DNA from: an uncultured virus (IMG/VR IMGVR_UViG_3300020234_000071)
Lineage: Duplodnaviria > Heunggongvirae > Uroviricota > Caudoviricetes
IMG/VR virus record: IMGVR_UViG_3300020234_000071
Direction: 5' to 3' (one strand)
Length of the DNA: 64,000 nucleotides
Part shown: positions 1,358 to 64,000 of the stretch, piece after piece
Position numbering within the stretch: position 1 is the stretch's first letter
Layout of the letters: every line of letters starts with the position of its first letter
Position numbers and translations under genes: made by a program
The notes under the pieces: model-generated
Database searches by the model: none
Told to the model about the DNA's origin: nothing
The model's input: only the letters and a program-made list of their open reading frames with translations

Positions 1358-1675
1358 TCTGATCTTCCTATATCACAGGCAGATTCCCTACGCGCACACA
1401 AAAAAATCAATGTTATAATCTGAATCCTATGTCTGACCCATTTATAAAGGTACTGTTAAGAGCTAAGGTGCAAGCTCGGACGGATGCACGAGAGATTAAG
1501 CGATTGCGGGGGGAATTGGGACAGTGTAAATCGTTGGTTGGTCGGTATCGCAAATACTTTTCGGACACGGTTAAGGCTCAGAAATTACGGAGTACACGGG
1601 GTAAATAGGGGTAAATAAAGTTTGTGGGGGGATGGGCTTATCGTGGGCAATTTAAAAATTCGCGCAAAAAAATAC

Positions 1676-1903
1676 TTACTCCTGATGTGAACAGCTTGTT
1701 TTTCCGCAGATGTCGCAGATACCGTGGAATTCCAGAATTTCTTTTAATCTTGCAATATGTGAATCCCTATTTTTCTTAGCGTGTTGAACTGAGGCTAGTC
1801 GATCATGCAAATGCAGAACAGTAATCTTGTATTGATTGTTCCTGTGGGTAAGGCGAGAAATAGTTTTTTCCTGTCCTGTCTGCCTGTCGGGAAAGTCTTT
1901 CAT
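1676..1903 (-). CDS. Hypothetical protein with C-terminal Cys cluster
   Basis: ORF track; last gene of the tightly packed minus-strand operon. Confidence 0.55.
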   Translation of the reverse strand: MKDFPDRQTGQEKTISRLTHRNNQYKITVLHLHDRLASVQHAKKNRDSHIARLKEILEFHGICDICGKTSCSHQE

Positions 1904-2589: not shown

Positions 2590-3069
2590 TTAATATGCTT
2601 CGTATCCTGTCCAACCTAATTTGATACGCTTTCGAATTCCGTTGTCTGTTATGCCAAGTGCCTTCCCTGCATCTACACAGGATTCATATAAAATCCCTGC
2701 GGCTAAAACTGGTCGTGCTGCGTAACAGTTTCCAAATTCCCGTGTTGAACGCTGTCTACCCCGTGCTGACATTTCATCCATGTTGTCCTGATGTGTTCCC
2801 ATGTGTAAATGATCGGGGTTGACACATCTTCGATTGTCACAGTGATGAAGAACCATAAGACCGTTTTTTATCTCCCCGTTAAAAACGAGATAAGAAACTC
2901 TGGAAACCTTCAGTGCGTAATCTGGTATTTTCGGGTATCTGCGAAGATGACAACGGGCATACCCGCTTTGGTCACAAGAAAAATTCCAGTTCCAACATTT
3001 CGTTTTCGAATCGATGGTTGAATTTTTCTTGATGTAATCTCTTACATCTTCATCAGTCATTTCTTTCAA
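2590..3069 (-). CDS. HNH homing endonuclease with C-terminal NUMOD-like DNA-binding domain
   Basis: CWNW, GY, VLHHCDNRRCVNPDHL.GT..DN motifs; YES..DAGKALGI. Confidence 0.9.
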   Translation of the reverse strand: MKEMTDEDVRDYIKKNSTIDSKTKCWNWNFSCDQSGYARCHLRRYPKIPDYALKVSRVSYLVFNGEIKNGLMVLHHCDNRRCVNPDHLHMGTHQDNMDEMSARGRQRSTREFGNCYAARPVLAAGILYESCVDAGKALGITDNGIRKRIKLGWTGYEAY

Positions 3070-3094
3070 AGAACTGCCCCACTAAAAAAGGGTG

Positions 3095-3165
3095 CGAACC
3101 GTGGGGGAATCGAACCCCCGTAATCTGATAGAAAGTCAGGTGAACTACCACTATTCTAACGGTTC
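3095..3165 (-). tRNA. tRNA-Glu (anticodon TTC), CCA not encoded
   Basis: Cloverleaf: acceptor GAACCGT/ACGGTTC, anticodon loop CT-TTC-TA, T arm GGGGG-TTCGATT-CCCCC. Confidence 0.85.
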
Positions 3166-3304: not shown

Positions 3305-3391
3305 TGGTGGATGTCGTAGAATTCGAATCTACTAGTTTCAAGAACCCTCCCGCTTTACAGGCGGGGGAACTTCCAGTCGTTCATCACATCC
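3305..3391 (-). tRNA. tRNA-Tyr (anticodon GTA), CCA encoded
   Basis: Cloverleaf with CCCGC-CT-GTA-AA-GCGGG, long variable arm, GTAGA-TTCGAAT-TCTAC, ACCA end. Confidence 0.9.
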
Positions 3392-4242: not shown

Positions 4243-4267
4243 GAAATTAGAAATGGAGAAACACACG

Positions 4268-4702
4268 ATGACAAAACTTAGCAATCCCCCTTCAAGGGAA
4301 AAAGGCAAACGGTGGTATTGTGGGCCTTTCGTGATTGCCGCAGTTACGGGATTCTCTTTTGAGCCAATCCGATCTGCAATCAATCGCGCAAAAGGTAGAC
4401 CCATTTCGCGGGGGGTCTGTTCAGTACAAACTCAGGAACTTCGAAAAGCCTTCAAGGAACTTGGGTGGGATTCTACTGTGACATATCATCATGCGGAAAA
4501 TCCGAAGATGAGACTCAAGGACTTTATGAAAAGTCTTGACCCTGATGATAAGGACATCTATGTGGTCTACATCACGGGTCACTATGTTGCAGTGCAGGGC
4601 GATACTTTTGTTGATACCTACAGTAAGCACAAAGTATCAACCGTGTATTCCCCACAAGCAGGGAAGACCGTAAAACAAGTTTACAGAATGACCAAAGTTT
4701 AA
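4268..4702 (+). CDS. Hypothetical early protein with possible papain/C39-like Cys-His dyad
   Basis: YCGPFVIAAVTG and YVVYITGHYVAV; start re-assigned to the ATG after GGAG. Confidence 0.5.
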   Translation: MTKLSNPPSREKGKRWYCGPFVIAAVTGFSFEPIRSAINRAKGRPISRGVCSVQTQELRKAFKELGWDSTVTYHHAENPKMRLKDFMKSLDPDDKDIYVVYITGHYVAVQGDTFVDTYSKHKVSTVYSPQAGKTVKQVYRMTKV

Positions 4703-5003: not shown

Positions 5004-5074
5004 CAGATAATTGACAAATAATTTCTGTGTGGTGTATACTTAAGGTATAGAAATTAAACAACACGGAACACGAA

Positions 5075-8000
5075 ATGAAAATCACAGTATCAAAAGACAC
5101 AGGCTACACAGTTTATAAATTCGAAGCACGTAAGGTTACTTACGAAGTTCTTACCAAAGACCACAAAGAATTTTCAGTTTGGTCAAACCGTTTTGGAACT
5201 GCGGGTTTTGGTAGGGGAACTATGAATGTGTATTGGTCAGTTGAAGAGCTTGCAGCACGAAGCAAAATGTTTGCAGACTTTACAAAGAGCTTGACCGCTT
5301 ATTCCAACATGCTTAGTTCAGTGAGTCACTAACATGACTACCATACTAAACAAGAAAGGCAACGTAGGTTACACAGCCGAATATTGGAATTGTTCAGAAG
5401 GTCATTTTGACCCGAAGCGTAGGGATTTTGACCACACTACTATTCAATTAATTATTCGTTTCACTGAAGTTAAATCATGTGGCAAAAAGCAAATGACTTT
5501 ATCTGCCCCTGATGGTACTTGGTCTGATATGCGGGGAAAATTTTACAGCCCTGTGAAGCCGATTTATGAAACTTATGAAGACGCTGTTGAAGCTGCTGAA
5601 GAAATGTATGCTGTAATGATTCCTGAAATTTTGCGTCAACAAGATAGACGCTTGAATGGTGAGCATGGTCTGAAGTCAAGAATTGGTACAGACAAGTGGG
5701 CAACCAAACACGTTGAAGAAGTTGAGGCTTACATAGCCAAGATCGAAGCAGGAGAATTTCCGCTTGAAATAATTGACTATGCCGAGTGGTTAGAAAGCCT
5801 GAACAAACCCAAATTTTAACAACACGGAGAAACGAATATGGACAAGAAAAAAAGAGCATGGGAAATCACCTTAGACAATGGTGACAAGTTTGAATTCTTT
5901 GCTGAAGATAGAAGCCTTGCCGTAAGTCATAGTGCTCAGCTTTTTAGGGACACAGACTTTCCGCAATTGACACAACACAGTTCACCGAAGTTTAGTCGGT
6001 GGGCTTATGATGGAGAACTGTAAGTATGAGTTTTCCAAAACAAAATGTAGCAGGTAGGCGCAGACACCAAAAGCAAACTGCTAAAAATTTAGCTTGCCCT
6101 TCATGTAAGAGAAAGTCAGCACTGAAAATAACTTTCCCTGAAAGCACTGGTGGGCTTTATTGCGCGAAGCATTGTCGCTACTGTGGTTGGAATAAAACCA
6201 CATTAATCTTTGTGGGTGCGTAATGGATACCTTTGAAATTTCTGTAAATGGTATTCCTGCACTAGCAGTTGTTACCGATTATATTTGTGTTGCCCCCCAA
6301 GGTAAGGGGGCAGACAGTGACCTTGATTGCCACGGGTATTCAGAGATTGAGTACACCATTAAAGACCGCAAGGGCTACCCAAAAGTGGGGGATGCTGAGT
6401 GGTTGCTGAAGATCGTAAATGATCGGGATTTGTGGCAGGACATCCATGAACAGATAATATGGGATATGGAAAATATTGATTGACAAATAACCCTATATAG
6501 TTTAGGGTACTAATGACTAGGAGGTTTTATGAACGCGAATACTGTAAAAAAACTAGGCAGACGCAAAGCAGGTACTTGGGGCAGAACTGCCAAGCCTGTA
6601 GCAAAGCGTATTGCCAACAAAGCTTGCCGCCGCGCTGCGAAGCGCGAACTGTCATGAGTGCATGTGACATCAAATTTAATCCGAAGCGTAATGATCAAGG
6701 TGATTACGATCTTGAGCTATGGATTAATGGGCAGTTCGATTCCACTTGGAGCGCACCACTTAATTTTATCGATCAAGTTGATCTAGGCAAGTTTGCCAAG
6801 ATGGTCAATCGTGGTGTGTCACACGGCAAAGAAGATGCCCGAAAAGAAATGCGGGGTGCTCTGGGGATTACATCATGAGTGACTTGACTGATATGGAGCA
6901 GAAATTGCTCGCGCATTTAGAAGCCACGCATGATGAAGCTGTAAAGGCTTTCGGCAAGGAGTATGGGCCAGAGCATATTAGGATAATGAAGACCGATGGA
7001 AATATTCCGTGGGATGTCATGACAGCTTTCTGTGATGCTCACGATACGGATTATCCTGACTGGCCTGACTTCGTAAAATAAAATAATGACTAAAGAATTT
7101 TCTAAACTGGATACAGCCAAGCTCGATCTAATTCGCATGAAAAGCAAGTTGGATGATTTGCGGGATATGACCTTGCGGGATTATGAAGAAATTGATTATT
7201 TGGAAAAAGCAATTGGGACTAAACATGTATGGATTTTAGAACTTCAGGCTAAGCATGATGCGAAACCTGTTGAAGTAATGCGTAGGGATATGGAATCCCA
7301 TAAAGATAATGTAATTGACCTAAAGGAATTACGATAATGGCTCAGAGATTTTACTGCCCCGATTGTGGGGATTTCAGCGAAGACCGGGAGTACCCATTAA
7401 CAGATGATGGATTCCCAGATACCCCTTTGTGTAAATCCTGTGGGTCTGACTGTACAAATTTAACTGAAGACCCCCGAATGACAGAACTTAATAATCTGGC
7501 TAAAAGATTGGGGGTTGCAAGAATTGAATATAAGGAGCGTATTTCTGCGGTTGATACTTTAGCTCAAAAACTTAAAGATGATTGGGGGCTAAATAAATTA
7601 CCATGAATTTAGATTTATATGTGATTCCTGTTGCTCTGATTCTTTGCGGGTTAGTTGCTTTTGGTTGTGCAGCGTGGATTAAATGGCGGGATAAAGATGA
7701 TGAGTGATTTCAAAGACAATTTAAACTTTGTGATAGAGCAATATCAAAAAATACAAGACTATGTAATTAAAACTGGATTGTATAAAGATAAGCTTAATAC
7801 GCAGAGTCATTCTGATTTGGTGTTGATCAGAATAAAAGAATTGGAATTGACAAATGTTGAATGGATAAGTGCTGAAGACAGGTTGCCCCAAAAGTATCAG
7901 CAGGTTATTGCCTGTGGAACTTGGGTTGGTGAAATCTGCGGGGCAAAGGAAAAAGATTTTATTGGCATGGGCGAGTGGGACGGTTCAGTTGTAAATATGC

Positions 8001-10979: not shown

Positions 10980-11056
10980 AGTCACTTCAATAATCCTGAC
11001 AAATATTTATAGAGTGCTATAATATATGTATAGAAAGAAACAAAACGAGACACGAA

Positions 11057-11475
11057 ATGGAAACACTAATTATCTTCTTAAGCCTTCAAATCCCCGTAGT
11101 AATTTTTGCGGTTGCAGGTTTCAAGCATTGGAGAAAAGTTACCACTCATCGTTTGGCTCAACGTGTTTGCAGAAAGCATCCTGAAGCACATCAAGCAGGT
11201 ATCGCAGTTCGCAAATTTGGAATCACTCTTTATGAAGTTCCTGTTTGTGCCGCCACTCTTCGTCTTTACAAGGTTAAATAATCATGGTCATAGTAAACAT
11301 CAACCATAGAACATATCCCATCAGTCTGAAAAATAAGTCTGATGATTCCCTGCACTATATTATGAAGGATGCCTATGAAGCAATGAAGGCAAATCCTGAA
11401 GGTTCAAAGTCAGGTTACTATGCCGATGAAATTAATTATTGTTCTGATGAATTGGCAAAAAGGAAATCAGCATGA
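11057..11475 (+). other. Two short early CDSs (11057-11281, 11284-11475)
   Basis: ORFs directly downstream of a promoter; the first has the ACACGAAATG leader. Confidence 0.6.
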
Positions 11476-14565: not shown

Positions 14566-14655
14566 TACTAAGGTCAAAAAATAAACTGACAAATAATTTC
14601 TAGGTGTGTTATAATAGAATTACGAAATCGAATTTCAGGAGAGACCCGATAGAAA

Positions 14656-14775
14656 ATGAACAATCCAGTAGCTAAATACTCTAATAGGTTTAACAAACCT
14701 GCGACTCACACAGACCGCAAGAAAGCGGTAAAGCGTGGTGCGCGTCCCAAACACAAAAAGAACTATAATGTCTAA
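14656..14775 (+). CDS. Small basic protein (39 aa, MNNPVAKYSNRFNKPATHTDRKK...), absent from the ORF track
   Basis: First ORF after the promoter at 14586, with AGGAG upstream. Confidence 0.6.
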   Translation: MNNPVAKYSNRFNKPATHTDRKKAVKRGARPKHKKNYNV

Positions 14776-21302: not shown

Positions 21303-21403
21303 ATTAATTTGATATTAAGGTCAAATAAATTGACAAATAATTTTTACCTGTGTTATACTTAGAGTATAGAAATTAAATGTCATCAAATTTTAGGAGAGAC
21401 CTG

Positions 21404-21553
21404 ATGCCAACTCACGAAGAAATAGAAGCATTCATTATGAAGTCTGAAGCTCATGAATTATATGAGCACTACGAAGCAGTTGATGCGGCTGAAGAAGCTG
21501 CTGATGCTCAAGCTGCTGCGTATGAACTTGATCATTTTGCGTATCACAACTAG
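21404..21553 (+). CDS. Small highly acidic protein (49 aa), absent from the ORF track
   Basis: MPTHEEIEAF...AYELDHFAYHN after the promoter at 21330 and AGGAG. Confidence 0.6.
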   Translation: MPTHEEIEAFIMKSEAHELYEHYEAVDAAEEAADAQAAAYELDHFAYHN

Positions 21554-26958: not shown

Positions 26959-27045
26959 AATAAATGTAAATAAGTGCAAATAATCCTGACAAATAATTCT
27001 AGCTGTGCTATACTTAAGGTATACAAACAAACAAGGAAACACGAA

Positions 27046-27558
27046 ATGGCTTATATGTCCCAAGAAAATAAAAAAGCACTGGCTCCCCAGATCAAAGCTG
27101 TACTGAAAAAGTACAACATGAAGGGAACCATTGGTGTTCGGCACTATAGCACTTTAGTAGTTAATGTTAAATCTGGTGCTCTTGACATAATCGGTAACAT
27201 GATGGAAAACATTCCTGTAGATCATTTCTATACTGAGAATGCAGTTACCCCTACTAGCATCCAAGTTAATACTTACCACATTGGTAGTTCTTACACAGGT
27301 AAGGTTGCTGACTTCCTGACTGAACTTAAAGATGCAATGATGAGCACTGAAGATGGTTCGGTTGCCAATCATGACAACTCTGACATCATGACTGACTACT
27401 TTGATGTTGGTTGGTATATAGACATCAATGTTGGAAAATATGACAAGCCTTATGAACTTACTGGTAAGGTTGTCAAATTGAATGTTAAGAAGGCTGACAC
27501 TCCGAAAGTTGAAGTTGACCTTTGGGCTGAGCATCTTGAGACTCACGGTAGTTTTTAA
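27046..27558 (+). CDS. Conserved-type phage early protein with its own promoter and terminator
   Basis: MAYMSQE.KK...DNSDIMTDYFDVGWY; start after the ACACGAA leader. Confidence 0.7.
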   Translation: MAYMSQENKKALAPQIKAVLKKYNMKGTIGVRHYSTLVVNVKSGALDIIGNMMENIPVDHFYTENAVTPTSIQVNTYHIGSSYTGKVADFLTELKDAMMSTEDGSVANHDNSDIMTDYFDVGWYIDINVGKYDKPYELTGKVVKLNVKKADTPKVEVDLWAEHLETHGSF

Positions 27559-60403: not shown

Positions 60404-60784
60404 ATGTTCAAATATGTATCAATGATTTTGGGTGTAATATTAATGTGGGCTTTTTTTCTCTTGTGGATGAATGAGAAAGAAATTGGTTCACTGACTTTAA
60501 AGAATCAACAACTCACAACTGAACTTGATGTTTCAGAAGGAAATCTTGCCACTGCTGAAATCTCAAATAAACTTCAGTCTGATCAGGTAGCAGCATTCCA
60601 ACAGCAAATAATTAAGATTAGTGCGGAGCGCGAAGAATCCAGAAAGCAAGTTGAGTACGTGCGGAACCTTTTTATGGGTCATGACTTTCGAAGACTTCTT
60701 GAAAAGAAACCGGGACTCATTGAAAAACGAATGATCAAAGCTACAGCAAAAGTTTTGAAGGAGCTAGAAGAAGCTACGCAATGA
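60404..60784 (+). CDS. i-spanin (Rz-like)
   Basis: N-terminal TM, coiled coil, KPGLIE. Confidence 0.75.
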   Translation: MFKYVSMILGVILMWAFFLLWMNEKEIGSLTLKNQQLTTELDVSEGNLATAEISNKLQSDQVAAFQQQIIKISAEREESRKQVEYVRNLFMGHDFRRLLEKKPGLIEKRMIKATAKVLKELEEATQ

Positions 60785-61161
60785 AATACGCTATTTTATT
60801 TTTGACCTTAGTATCACTTTCTGGGTGTGGGATATTCACTAAGGAAAAGATTGTGATCAAAAATGTTCCTGTCTATGTTCCTGTGGTTTGTCCTGATGCC
60901 CAAAAAGTTACATCGATTAGTCCCAGACCTATTAGACCTAGAGCAATTCAAGATGTCGCAGGAATTTGGTGGGTGGCATTAACCCCAGAAGATTATGAAA
61001 ATCTGGCAATCAACACAAAGGAAACAATCAGATTTATTATTGATCAAAGGGGAGTGGTTCAGTATTATCGGGAATGCATAATTACTTTTAATAATAGTAT
61101 TGATAAATTGAAAAACGATTCTGACAAAATTCGGGAACAGATTGATGCCGACTCCGGGTAA
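60781..61161 (+). CDS. o-spanin (Rz1-like lipoprotein)
   Basis: Lipobox LSGC; Pro-rich; YENLA.N...RFI..Q. Confidence 0.78.
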   Translation: MKYAILFLTLVSLSGCGIFTKEKIVIKNVPVYVPVVCPDAQKVTSISPRPIRPRAIQDVAGIWWVALTPEDYENLAINTKETIRFIIDQRGVVQYYRECIITFNNSIDKLKNDSDKIREQIDADSG

Positions 61162-61218
61162 ATCACTTCCACAACAACCCAAAAAGTTTTTGAGGAAACC
61201 AGTGAAGAGAAATAAATA

Positions 61219-61581
61219 ATGGTCAAAATAAGAGATGACCAAGGACATTTCACAACAGCTTCAAAGGTGATTGCTATGATTGCGGGAACAGTAACTTTGC
61301 TGATTGCGTTGGGTACAACAGCATTCCAAATTGATGAACGTCACGCGAATACTCTTGAAGTTGCGGGGCAGTTCAAAGCTATTCAGGATTCACGGCAAGC
61401 ATCTGATCTGCAAAATCAATTAGCCCTGATTCAGATTAGGCTAGATATTCTTGAAGATAGATTGTTTCGGGAACGTCAACAAACTACTCCTAGTCAAACG
61501 TATATTAATAAATTGGAAAATGATATTCAAAGATTGATAACACAGTCTGATCAAATCTATGAACTATGGATTCAACAGTGA
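61219..61581 (+). CDS. Membrane-anchored coiled-coil hypothetical protein
   Basis: TM segment plus heptads. Confidence 0.6.
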   Translation: MVKIRDDQGHFTTASKVIAMIAGTVTLLIALGTTAFQIDERHANTLEVAGQFKAIQDSRQASDLQNQLALIQIRLDILEDRLFRERQQTTPSQTYINKLENDIQRLITQSDQIYELWIQQ

Positions 61582-61701
61582 TTGACAAAGATAGTGCGTA
61601 GGTTATAATTAAATCTGGGAAGTTACTGCTTCCTATATTCGTGTTTTGATTGTTTGTGTGTGAAGCCTCCCTTCAGAAAATCCTGTTGGGGGGCTTTTTT
61701 G
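61582..61701 (+). ncRNA. Candidate sRNA-1 with promoter (TTGACA-16-TATAAT), 5' hairpin, U/G-rich seed and terminator
   Basis: No ORF; seed AUAUUCGUGUUUUGAUUGUUUGUGU is complementary to early-gene leaders. Confidence 0.65.
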
Positions 61702-61725
61702 TGGGTTCACAATAACCCACAACAG

Positions 61726-61840
61726 TTGACAATAAAAAAATCAATGGGATAATGATCATGCCTATGCCTCACAGAACTATCCCCCTGTGAATGGGTGCAA
61801 GCCCTGTCTTCAACTGCCCTTGATGATGGGGCTTATTTTT
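61726..61840 (+). ncRNA. Candidate sRNA-2 with promoter (TTGACA-16-GATAAT) and two hairpins with C-rich loops
   Basis: Loops AACUAUCCCC and ACUGCCCU are exact complements of 63136-63145 and 63051-63058. Confidence 0.65.
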
Positions 61841-61849
61841 GGGGGGCAT

Positions 61850-61880
61850 AAAAAAGGGAGCCTGTCAGGACTCCCAAAAA
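61850..61880 (-). terminator. Intrinsic terminator for the minus-strand early genes
   Basis: GGGAGTCCTG-A-CAGGCTCCC-TTTTTT on the minus strand. Confidence 0.7.
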
Positions 61881-61921
61881 CAACACACGAGTAAATCTTT
61901 AAACTGGAATTTAAAATTCCA

Positions 61922-62406
61922 TTACCGATCTAACCATGTCCACGGGTCTGCTTCATAAAGTTCTTCATCAGATAGTTCTTCATGTTTTGTGTTGGTGGCT
62001 CTGGTCTCATTGTCTTCAATCATGTTATCGATTAAAGCCATTGCATCTTTTTTAGATTCAGCATCCCAAGGGTAGTGATTCATCCCTTCAAGTTTGATCA
62101 TCCAACCAGTGTCATCAACGGCAAGTTCATATCCCCGATAGGAATATTCCCCTGTCTTAATTCGTGTTGCTCTATTCATATCGTTTACTTTATCCAAGTT
62201 CCATTATTGTCAGTAGTCAGAACCATGTTTTTAAGTTTGTAACCATCAGCAGAAACTACCACTACTGAAGACCAATAAAATTTTCCAAGGTCTCCCAACA
62301 TCGGGCAGTATGTGGGTTTGTGATTCCAGTAGACCCGAAGATTTTTCAAAGAAGGGTTTGCCTTTTTGATCATTCGTTTTGCTACAGCAAGTGTTGGTTT
62401 TTTCAT
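61922..62406 (-). other. Two minus-strand early CDSs (62185-62406 and 61922-~62179)
   Basis: Under the promoter at 62442-62470 with AACACGATATG leader. Confidence 0.65.
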
Positions 62407-62573
62407 ATCGTGTTCATCTCTTTGTTTGTTTTCGTACTATAAGTATAGCATAGTTAGAAATATTTGTCAGGTTTATTTGCACTTAATATCAATTTATTTA
62501 TCGAAAAGACCTTGCTTTTATTTGTCAAGGTGCTATACTTAAGGTATACAAACAAACAAAGAGACACACGAAA

Positions 62574-63002
62574 ATGAATACAAATAAAGTTGAATTAAGA
62601 TTTGAAGCAGGATGTGAAGAAGATTGTGGAAGGGCTTTTGAAGTTGCTGATATAATCCATGCCCCTGAAGATTCGATACATGCAAAGATGGAATCTGAAG
62701 ATGGTACTTACTTTGTAATGAGGGTTGTATTGAATGACCCGATGAACACAGACATCAATGAGTTGGTCAAGAAAATTGACTACCTGATGAACCTTTAAAC
62801 GAGACACGAAATGGCAAAACCAAACAAGATGGGAATGAGTGCAAAGCAATTGATGCGGTCTCGCCGCGCTCGATTTGGTATGCCTAAACCTAAGCCTCTT
62901 GGTGATGATTGGGAAGCCTTTTATGACAAGATGGAAAAGGGTGATATGTCTGTTGAGCAAATGAAATCTGAAATGGAAAAGTTGTTGGATAAGAAATCCT
63001 AA
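62574..63002 (+). other. Two early CDSs (62574-62798, 62811-63002)
   Basis: Divergent promoter at 62512-62539; ACACGAA leaders. Confidence 0.65.
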
Positions 63003-63146
63003 TATCTGCTTGACAAATATTTTAAAGTAGTGTAAGCTTAACACATAAGTAGGGCAGTGCTTTCGTTAAATTCCTATCTATTGGTAAGGGAGCGTTTTAC
63101 TTTTCTCTGCTCAAGCAGTAAGCTACAAATAACTAGGGGATAGTTA

Positions 63147-64000
63147 ATGATTAAAAAGGCAGTGAGTGGTTTGATACCACTCATATCTGTGAGGTCAACT
63201 GACCTTCTTCACATTGAGTTTGTTCTGCGGGGTTTGTTTCCCAAGCATAATGTTATGGCTTTGGGTTCCAAGTTCGTTGAGAGTGAAGAGTTGACCCCCC
63301 TATATTATTCCGTTGGAACTTCAAAAGAAAATTCCCTGAACGATCTTTATAATGATGCTGAGCAAAATGAATACTCAGTAATATTTATCAATCATGACCC
63401 AGACCCAAGATTAATGGAGTGTGGGGAATTAGTCCCAGATGAAAAAACAATTCATCAAATGCTTAAGGGAGAAATCCCAACTAAAATTCTGAAAGAATCT
63501 GTTGCCTATCTCAAGGGTTTGACAGTTCAACATATCAAACAAACACTTTCCCTTTGCTCTATCTACTACGATCAGATTTCCGTGGAGAGCATCCGCAAAA
63601 CCAAAGAAAGATTATTCATTCATCAAACGGGAATTACAAAAGTTGACCCTGAGACCCCATTTTATTTTGGTGGAAATAATTTGTCTTTGTGGGTAGCTGA
63701 AAATAAACCTTATATGTTTGCGGATGTCGATCATAGATTAGTTCCCAAAGGGGTTTTGATGTACGGGGAATCTGGGACAGGTAAAACTGAATTTTCAAAA
63801 TATGTTGCGCGGGAATGGGGGCTATCTTTATTTCTGTTGGATGTTAATTCCATGCTATCGAAATGGCAGGGAGAAGCAGAGCATCATCTGAACCAAGCAC
63901 TTGTAACATTGGATAAGGAAAGCCCGTGCATAGTTTTGTTTGATGAAGTGGAAAAGCTTTTCATGAACAATAGCGAAAACGATACAAGCCAAAGATTGTT
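63147..64000 (+). CDS. AAA+ ATPase (Ycf46/CDC48-like), 3' partial, absent from the ORF track
   Basis: Manual translation: PKGVLMYGESGTGKT, SKWQGEAE, PCIVLFDEVEK; in frame with ATG 63147. Confidence 0.88.
   Translation, partial: MIKKAVSGLIPLISVRSTDLLHIEFVLRGLFPKHNVMALGSKFVESEELTPLYYSVGTSKENSLNDLYNDAEQNEYSVIFINHDPDPRLMECGELVPDEKTIHQMLKGEIPTKILKESVAYLKGLTVQHIKQTLSLCSIYYDQISVESIRKTKERLFIHQTGITKVDPETPFYFGGNNLSLWVAENKPYMFADVDHRLVPKGVLMYGESGTGKTEFSKYVAREWGLSLFLLDVNSMLSKWQGEAEHHLNQALVTLDKESPCIVLFDEVEKLFMNNSENDTSQRL

Follow-up and report, generated by a model that had tools for sequence, protein, structure and literature searches.

The window (the whole stretch of ~64 kb of DNA analysed in this study) belongs to an uncultured tailed phage, in which PHROG matches were obtained for a family A DNA polymerase, the portal, the major capsid protein, the tape measure and tail proteins. 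PHROG matches also identified a lysis cassette, which comprises an endolysin and two Rz-like spanins and ends at position 61581. The stop codon of its last gene (61219-61581, plus strand) is located directly 5' of a sigma-70 type promoter on the same strand (61582-61609), which is followed by a short hairpin (61616-61635), a 26-nt U/G-rich stretch without predicted pairing (61636-61661) and an intrinsic terminator (61662-61700). We refer to this unit as sRNA1. A second unit on the plus strand, sRNA2, has its own promoter (61726-61753) and spans 61759-61840. Beyond it lies the minus-strand terminator of a set of convergent leftward genes (62406 to 61922), positioned at 61856-61875 and conserved in four of the six locus variants described below.

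The window DNA matched none of the deposited phages in either near or distant search modes, and the capsid proteins of deposited phages are at most ~52% identical to that of the window. The sequencing runs containing the window DNA carry the labels marine sediment, subsurface or marine metagenomes, and relatives of the window are present among viral and metagenome contigs. Two of these relatives, the 89,323-bp G003, which is rated as complete, and the fragment G002, are collinear with the window at ~70-85% identity. As neither an integrase (PF00589) nor a resolvase (PF00239) was found in the complete G003 or in G002, the phage is probably virulent; judging from the sequence, we are probably dealing with a virulent, uncultured siphovirus. 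The terminal repeat of G003 is only 123 bp, and the position of the sRNA locus near the end of the G003 record is therefore uninformative on the order of injection. A 120-aa neighbour protein was also searched for in viral contigs, and no relative was found.

Two further regions of the window are worth recording. The genes for tRNA-Glu(TTC) (3094-3165) and tRNA-Tyr(GTA) (3305-3391), both on the minus strand, adjoin an HNH endonuclease gene (2590-3069, minus strand). The region 620-1000 is non-coding and carries a 69-nt direct repeat (615-683 and 805-873, 83% identical), together with several promoters of the module type described below. Two of these promoters read directly into runs of four G tracts (~762-776 and ~917-940) resembling G-quadruplex motifs.

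A preliminary description of this DNA had proposed that a consensus promoter at 61582-61609 reads into a hairpin, a single-stranded segment and a terminator, and each of these elements was recovered here. The promoter (TTGACA-16-TATAAT) matches the consensus at 12 of 12 positions and is the best of eight promoter-like sites in 60500-63500, the number of such sites being not above that in shuffled sequences (mean 8.8). In the MFE fold of the plus strand, the 5' hairpin starts at approximately the inferred transcription start. The U/G-rich stretch, hereafter the seed, is unpaired in the MFE, centroid and consensus folds, and opens with an 11-nt core, TATTCGTGTTT (61636-61646). The terminator is composed of a 10-pair G+C-rich stem and six U. 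The folding energy of 61616-61701 on the plus strand, -31.8 kcal/mol (z -4.9), was equalled by none of 200 shuffles, and neither an ATG nor an ORF was found in the transcript. The locus consequently has what is expected of a trans-acting sRNA, namely its own promoter and a U-tailed intrinsic terminator bounding a short non-coding transcript. In Rfam 15, GcvB included, no family scored at or near its gathering score, and only chance-level hits appeared at E values up to 10; the best match over sRNA1 was BTnc201, whose 22.5 bits (E 0.62) fall below its gathering score of 105. Contigs from two runs labelled as metatranscriptomes, a label that is a guess and may hide DNA, and containing small shares of the window, cover the lysis genes, the sRNA locus and the early genes alike and are therefore uninformative on expression, strand and transcript ends.

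The same segment might instead be expressed from the minus strand alone, as a decayed early leader, and on that strand it does read like a leader (ACAAACAATCAAAACACGAATATAGG). We regard this as extremely improbable, as (i) no promoter-like site is located upstream on that strand, (ii) the leader-like sequence lacks a start codon, with ATA standing where ATG would be, and 61582-61900 contains no minus-strand ORF of at least 30 aa, (iii) the minus strand folds less well (-20.9 vs -31.8 kcal/mol), and (iv) the features kept and co-varying among the variants are a plus-strand promoter and a terminator with a plus-strand U run. The lack of a minus-strand ORF of that size in this interval also sets sRNA1 apart from the cis-antisense RNAs of the lambda OOP/P22 Sar type, which lie opposite their target gene, as does the distance of 0.7 to 57 kb to the complementary leaders described below.

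No other plus-strand terminator was found between 60500 and 61615, and the terminator of sRNA1 probably closes the late lysis operon as well. As it is the only plus-strand terminator after the lysis genes, the seed would become part of the 3' ends of the late transcripts.

Loci homologous to sRNA1 were found in G002 and G003 (~70-74% DNA identity), and seven further loci from metagenome contigs were reached via the better-conserved neighbouring sRNA2. The comparison set of 10 loci, the window included, contains four duplicates and yields six distinct variants; at the sRNA locus, the contig L103 does not differ from the window, which may derive from it. The promoter, the unpaired stretch and both hairpins (5' hairpin and terminator) are kept in all six variants. 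The -35 element reads TTGACA, TTGCAA or TTGCTA, and the -10 element TATAAT or TATACT. The stem of the 5' hairpin is GGAAG/CTTCC in the window and GGTGA/TCACC in three contigs (L038, L101 and L105), with a third form in G003, and pairing is kept throughout. In the terminator stem, compensatory changes occur in three of nine pairs (the third pair is G-C, C-G or A-U depending on the variant), and 100% of the cells of the alignment are paired. Both helices were found in the consensus fold of the variants, which leaves the seed unpaired.

Covariation was also evaluated after fitting the alignment to a covariance model, a procedure that favours the structure. Of the 84 cells, 96.4% are paired, and both sides have changed in five of 14 pairs. 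The covariation score of 0.424 compares with 0.194 in shuffles and was reached by none of 500, and paired cells fall to at most 64% when the partners are slid against each other. The 11-nt core is invariant in the six variants while the surrounding DNA is ~70-74% identical. The unpaired seed is accordingly more conserved than the flanking co-varying helices, as is expected of a trans-acting sRNA. Because the six variants keep the promoter, both hairpins with compensatory changes and the invariant core, sRNA1 is very likely real, and we are highly confident that 61582-61700 constitutes a plus-strand sRNA gene with a product of ~85 nt.

Outside the core, some variation was observed. The distal part of the seed differs among the phages, reading GATTGTTTGT in the window, GATGATTGTTTT in G003 and TGTTTTGTAG in L105, the most divergent of the variants. 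The L101 variant (1597-1684, minus strand of the locus) has the seed core twice, with the additional copy (TTATTCGTG) in the loop and 3' arm of the 5' hairpin, and is otherwise nearly identical to the window. Contigs from other samples have small insertions in the 5' hairpin (61619-61631), and none differs in the seed among the matches listed.

Searches for sRNA1 outside the comparison set gave little. The exact seed pattern had no match in the viral contigs, and a looser pattern hit 60 loci there, of which none but the two known before come from phages of this group. In bacterial and archaeal genomes, a 17-nt segment of sRNA1 had 22 hits; scattered as they are over unrelated taxa, these hits were taken as chance. 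The sRNA2 core had no hits in the same genomes, and with the scatter of the sRNA1 hits there is therefore no lead to a host or a prophage. A covariance-model search for paralogues over 250,839 bases (the window and its relatives) returned only weak hits, with E values of 0.078 or worse.

The adjoining sRNA2 is more conserved than sRNA1. Its promoter (TTGACA-16-GATAAT, with TG before the -10 element; 11 of 12 consensus matches) is kept in the six variants, and the ~82-nt unit consists of a loop hairpin followed by a terminator hairpin and a U run. Folds of the six variants show an invariant 10-nt loop, AACTATCCCC (61775-61784). The first stem has a compensatory change in G003, and CACAG/CTGTG is replaced by CTCAG/CTGAG in L039. 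A short ORF at the 5' end is conserved neither in length nor in start, and we therefore take sRNA2 as non-coding. The loop is complementary to GGGGATA, which is the commonest start-site motif and, counting artefacts aside, the 7-mer most enriched at start sites in both the window and G003. A further complementarity, of 10 nt, exists with the AAA ATPase gene at 63147, at its start site, and is preserved without a change in G002 and G003. This complementarity supports the idea that the locus may make regulators aimed at start sites. We also note that the sRNA2 loop, AACUAUCCCC, resembles the anti-Shine-Dalgarno sequence.

With two strong tandem promoters in non-coding DNA between modules, it is conceivable that the locus works by something other than pairing, such as titration of a chaperone, formation of a primer or R-loop near an origin, or read-through interference with the leftward genes (62406-61922), to which transcription past both terminators would run antisense. 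The loop of the sRNA1 terminator, TTCAGAAA..TGTT, is conserved in five of the six variants and is not explained by pairing with leaders, which would also fit a role of this kind. Nevertheless, both units end in strong terminators, and the most conserved element of sRNA1 is its unpaired stretch, as in base-pairing sRNAs. We consider a non-pairing role improbable.

A base-pairing role directs attention to the leaders of the phage's own genes. The preliminary description had claimed that early genes carry ACACGA directly before the start codon, and the seven sites given (4268, 5075, 11057, 27046, 62574, 62811 and, on the minus strand, 62406) all hold, as does the variant ACGAATATG at 5838. Counting both strands, the window has 29 copies of ACACGA, and the motif is not enriched overall. 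A comparison with background had been proposed: seven of the 29 fall in the 12 nt preceding an ATG that opens at least 50 codons, where ~1.03 would be expected. Among the 7-mers enriched in the 14 nt before such ATGs, ACACGAA ranks 15th; of those above it, the two at the top result from counting artefacts, and the others mostly resemble Shine-Dalgarno sequences. The sequence ACACGAAATG occurs four times in the window. The statement that ACAAACAA often precedes the motif was generous, as this is the case in only three of the seven leaders (27046, 62574 and 62406 on the minus strand).

Many of these leaders belong to a repeated module, in which a -35 element, (C/T)TGACAAATA, is followed by an extended -10 element, TGnTATACT, overlapped by the palindrome TATAC-N5-GTATA, and then by a C/A-rich leader, a weak purine Shine-Dalgarno sequence (GAGA, GGAA or CGGA), (A)CACGAA and the ATG. 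Six of the eight modules listed feed an ACACGA start site, and the remaining two, upstream of the genes at 14657 and 21404, have a AGGAGAGAC leader instead. Within these two (14585-14657 and 21330-21404), a promoter of the same class precedes a strong AGGAGAGAC site, such that two leader classes stand behind one promoter class. The palindrome is exact at 5035-5049, 27009-27023 and 62534-62548, and occurs as variants at 21354-21368, 62448-62460 (minus strand) and 11019-11033. It overlaps the -10 element and the start of most module promoters, with 11 matches at up to three mismatches against 1.9 expected, and looks like the operator of a repressor. Both sRNA promoters lack the palindrome.

The motif goes with start codons and not with promoters, because the site at 62811 lies inside an operon and a site in a relative (G002, 29376) lies just after a terminator, neither of them with a promoter module upstream. 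This tie to start codons in turn argues for a role of the motif at the RNA level. The motif-bearing genes encode small proteins without known function, and the one at 27046 has the DNA polymerase gene on one side and the portal gene on the other. Judged by promoter type alone, the motif genes would be expressed early.

The seed of sRNA1 complements two elements of these leaders, AAACACGAA and ACAAACAA. The pairing reported before, 9+8 nt with the 27046 leader and 7+8 nt with those of 62574 and 62406, proved correct. We co-folded the full sRNA with the region from -35 to +20 of all 507 ATGs opening at least 50 codons in the window, subtracting the self-structure of both partners. The motif start sites took ranks 1, 3, 5, 7, 8, 15, 22 and 29 of 507, with rank 2 being the same site as rank 1. 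The best predicted target is the leader and start of the 27046 gene (ACAAACAAACAAGGAAACACGAAATG; 27021-27048, plus strand; -23.4 kcal/mol, rank 1), for which the duplex spans -25 to -1. It is followed by the leaders of 62574 (62544-62576, plus strand; -21.1 kcal/mol, rank 3), 11057 (11035-11059, plus strand; -18.3 kcal/mol, rank 5), the leftward gene 62406 (62404-62437, minus strand; -17.9 kcal/mol, rank 7) and 5075 (5045-5077, plus strand; -17.7 kcal/mol, rank 8). Weaker predicted targets are the 62811 start site within its operon (GAGACACGAAATG; 62798-62813, plus strand; rank 15), the 5838 variant site (rank 22) and the 4268 start site (AACACACGATG; 4260-4270, plus strand; rank 29). The duplexes cover approximately -25 to -1, which corresponds to the Shine-Dalgarno region and the spacer, and the complementary leaders lie 0.7 to 57 kb from sRNA1. 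The AGGAGAGAC-leader genes at 14657 and 21404 pair poorly with sRNA1: they reach only -9.5 and -8.0 kcal/mol, whereas the motif sites range from -15.2 to -23.4 kcal/mol.

The statistical standing of these matches depends on how they are scored. The best energy (-22.9) was reached by none of 11 shuffles of the unpaired stretch, and one of the 11 gave more strong sites than the real seed. In Watson-Crick local alignments to the seven leaders, the maximum was reached by 36 and the sum by 49 of 2000 composition-matched shuffles; the corresponding numbers among 18,280 genomic 26-mers, the opposite strands of the leaders themselves included, were 35 and 25. With a loop-permissive duplex energy, the real seeds did not outperform shuffled ones in any of the three genomes (window, G002 and G003). 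Exact complements of at least 7 nt were present at 18 start sites in the window, against a shuffle mean of 14, which is not significant (46 of 200 shuffles reached 18), and in G002 and G003 such complements were at or below the shuffle means. The complementarity is partly compositional, as leaders rich in C and A will pair with any stretch rich in U and G.

The signal is weaker in the relatives than in the window. ACACGAA is rarer in their start sites, with a 7-mer rank of 154 in G003 and 1649 in G002. When the start sites of each relative were co-folded with its own sRNA, C/A-rich leaders took ranks 3, 7 and 11 among 768 sites in G003 and ranks 1 and 5 among 517 sites in G002, a noisy enrichment. 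The orthologous leaders in L105 and L039 read GAGACAAACAACATG and lack ACACGA while the seed core is unchanged; consequently, no covariation between the seed and its targets could be shown among the leaders visible in the loci. The proposal that one phage sRNA silences a dispersed early regulon therefore fares unevenly. The sRNA gene itself is backed by six variants with compensatory changes, and the leaders are linked to it by their ranks and by the poor pairing of the AGGAGAGAC-leader genes, but the target link is statistically moderate and weaker in two relatives.

These results leave room for a reading in which sRNA1 is a real sRNA whose main targets are host mRNAs, with the match to the phage leaders being a secondary effect or a vestige of how the sRNA arose. 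C/A-rich elements close to ribosome-binding sites in host messages could be reached by a U/G-rich seed, in the manner of the host sRNA GcvB, the G/U-rich R1 region of which is described as pairing with most of its targets (PMC9299463). Furthermore, host genes are, according to a review, frequent targets of the phage sRNAs known so far (PMC12197685), and host targets would suit a seed core that is invariant although the exact motif is rare in the leaders of relatives, and a pairing with phage leaders that is in large part compositional. Nevertheless, no Rfam family, GcvB included, matches sRNA1 beyond chance level (E up to 10), and within the phage it is the phage leaders that rank at the top of the start sites. 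We find host mRNAs possible as the main targets, albeit rather unlikely.

Reverse-complemented, the seed (61636-61661) can be aligned with the leaders in the order ACAAACAA, short spacer, AAACACGAA: it reads ACAAACAA-TCA-AAACACGAA-TATA, to be compared with ACAAACAA-GG-AAACACGAA-ATG in the 27046 leader. As the reverse complement is leader-like, with the Shine-Dalgarno purines and the ATG replaced, this suggests an inverted leader copy as the origin of the sRNA1 gene. One could also imagine that the unit is mainly the terminator of the late operon, standing where that operon needs one, joined to an inverted and decayed promoter-leader module that is complementary by descent and has no function in trans. 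Such a relic would not be expected to retain a perfect promoter, a compensated 5' hairpin and an 11-nt invariant core across six variants when the flanks differ by ~26-30%, and the adjoining sRNA2 is built alike. The relic is, in our judgement, quite unlikely.

We therefore return to sRNA1 as a regulator of the phage's own leaders. A 5' hairpin, an unpaired seed and a U-tailed terminator are the usual build of a chaperone-assisted trans-acting sRNA. In the mechanism we propose, sRNA1 would be transcribed from the plus strand by the host RNA polymerase, at the place where the late lysis cassette meets a divergent region of early-type promoters, and its 5' hairpin would be protective. The seed would then pair with C/A-rich leaders having weak Shine-Dalgarno sequences, over approximately -25 to -1 (ACAAACAA ... 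ACACGAA-ATG). This pairing would mask the ribosome-binding region and block binding of the 30S subunit, leading to less translation and perhaps to a lower stability of the mRNA. As the sRNA1 promoter is a perfect consensus, the sRNA may be made together with its targets; as this promoter lacks the palindrome and is located at the 3' end of the lysis operon, the sRNA could keep accumulating while the target promoters are shut. Continued accumulation might thereby bring about a timed silencing of the target messages. Whether a plus-strand sRNA of ~85 nt, made by the host RNA polymerase, represses the phage's own C/A-rich leaders, taken as one complete statement, is in our view evenly balanced between being right and being wrong.

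It is attractive to speculate further that the two sRNAs address both kinds of ribosome site, sRNA1 the C/A-rich ACACGAA leaders behind early-type promoters and sRNA2 the GGGGAUA sites of many other genes, including the AAA ATPase gene at 63147, such that a virulent phage would schedule its translation by RNA alone. We hold this extension to be unlikely.

The roles of non-coding RNAs in lytic phages are, according to a 2024 review, still to be elucidated (PMC10884466). The phage sRNAs described in the open-access papers and preprints searched are mostly from prophages and temperate phages; neither in these papers and preprints nor on searching a 2025 review on phage sRNAs (PMC12197685) did we find a virulent-phage sRNA controlling dispersed leaders of its own phage. 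If the proposal is correct, a virulent phage controls dispersed genes of its own at translation initiation by a trans-acting sRNA, and an inverted leader copy would be a route by which such an sRNA can originate. It would also provide a rule for finding others, i.e., small promoter-terminator units whose unpaired stretch complements start-site-enriched motifs of the same phage. With its 85 nt, an invariant core of 11 nt and between six and eight leaders already named, the candidate makes a compact test case.

Phage T4 shuts down its early messages post-transcriptionally with RegA, a translational repressor, and RegB, an endoribonuclease, and dispersed early messages are silenced in this way at their ribosome-binding sites via a common short motif. 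The silencing logic proposed for sRNA1 would be the same, with the difference that RegA and RegB are proteins and sRNA1 is an RNA. If sRNA1 and sRNA2 do act as a pair, they would be the RNA counterpart of RegA and RegB. In enterobacteria, the target elements of GcvB are reportedly C/A-rich and located at or upstream of ribosome-binding sites. sRNA1 resembles GcvB in having an unpaired G/U-rich stretch between hairpins (R1 being the G/U-rich region in GcvB), a U-tailed terminator and many targets, which are predicted ones in the case of sRNA1. It differs in being phage-encoded and much shorter, in having no Rfam match, and in that its proposed targets are the phage's own leaders. What appears to be new here is, by this analogy, a GcvB-like logic in a probably virulent phage with its own leaders as predicted targets.

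Among phage RNAs, P4 CI and P22 Sar are further examples that repress phage genes by pairing. The c4 RNA of phage P1 is described as a trans-acting RNA that represses synthesis of the Ant proteins (PMC8546580), and as being processed from the operon it controls (Citron and Schuster 1992, cited in PMC8546580). As proposed for sRNA1, c4 is a phage RNA repressing phage genes by pairing. Nevertheless, c4 serves the immunity of a temperate phage and acts on one operon, whereas sRNA1 has its own promoter, dispersed predicted targets and a probably virulent phage as its bearer; sRNA1 does not share the processing from a regulated operon of a temperate phage that marks RNAs of the P1 c4/P4 CI type. 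SviR, an sRNA of the PLE satellite, is reported to act in trans and to lower the translation of messages of phage ICP1 (bioRxiv 10.1101/2022.04.08.487710). Like SviR, sRNA1 would be a trans-acting sRNA conserved in a mobile element and acting on phage messages; SviR, however, is encoded by a satellite and fights the phage, whereas sRNA1 would regulate the genes of its own phage.
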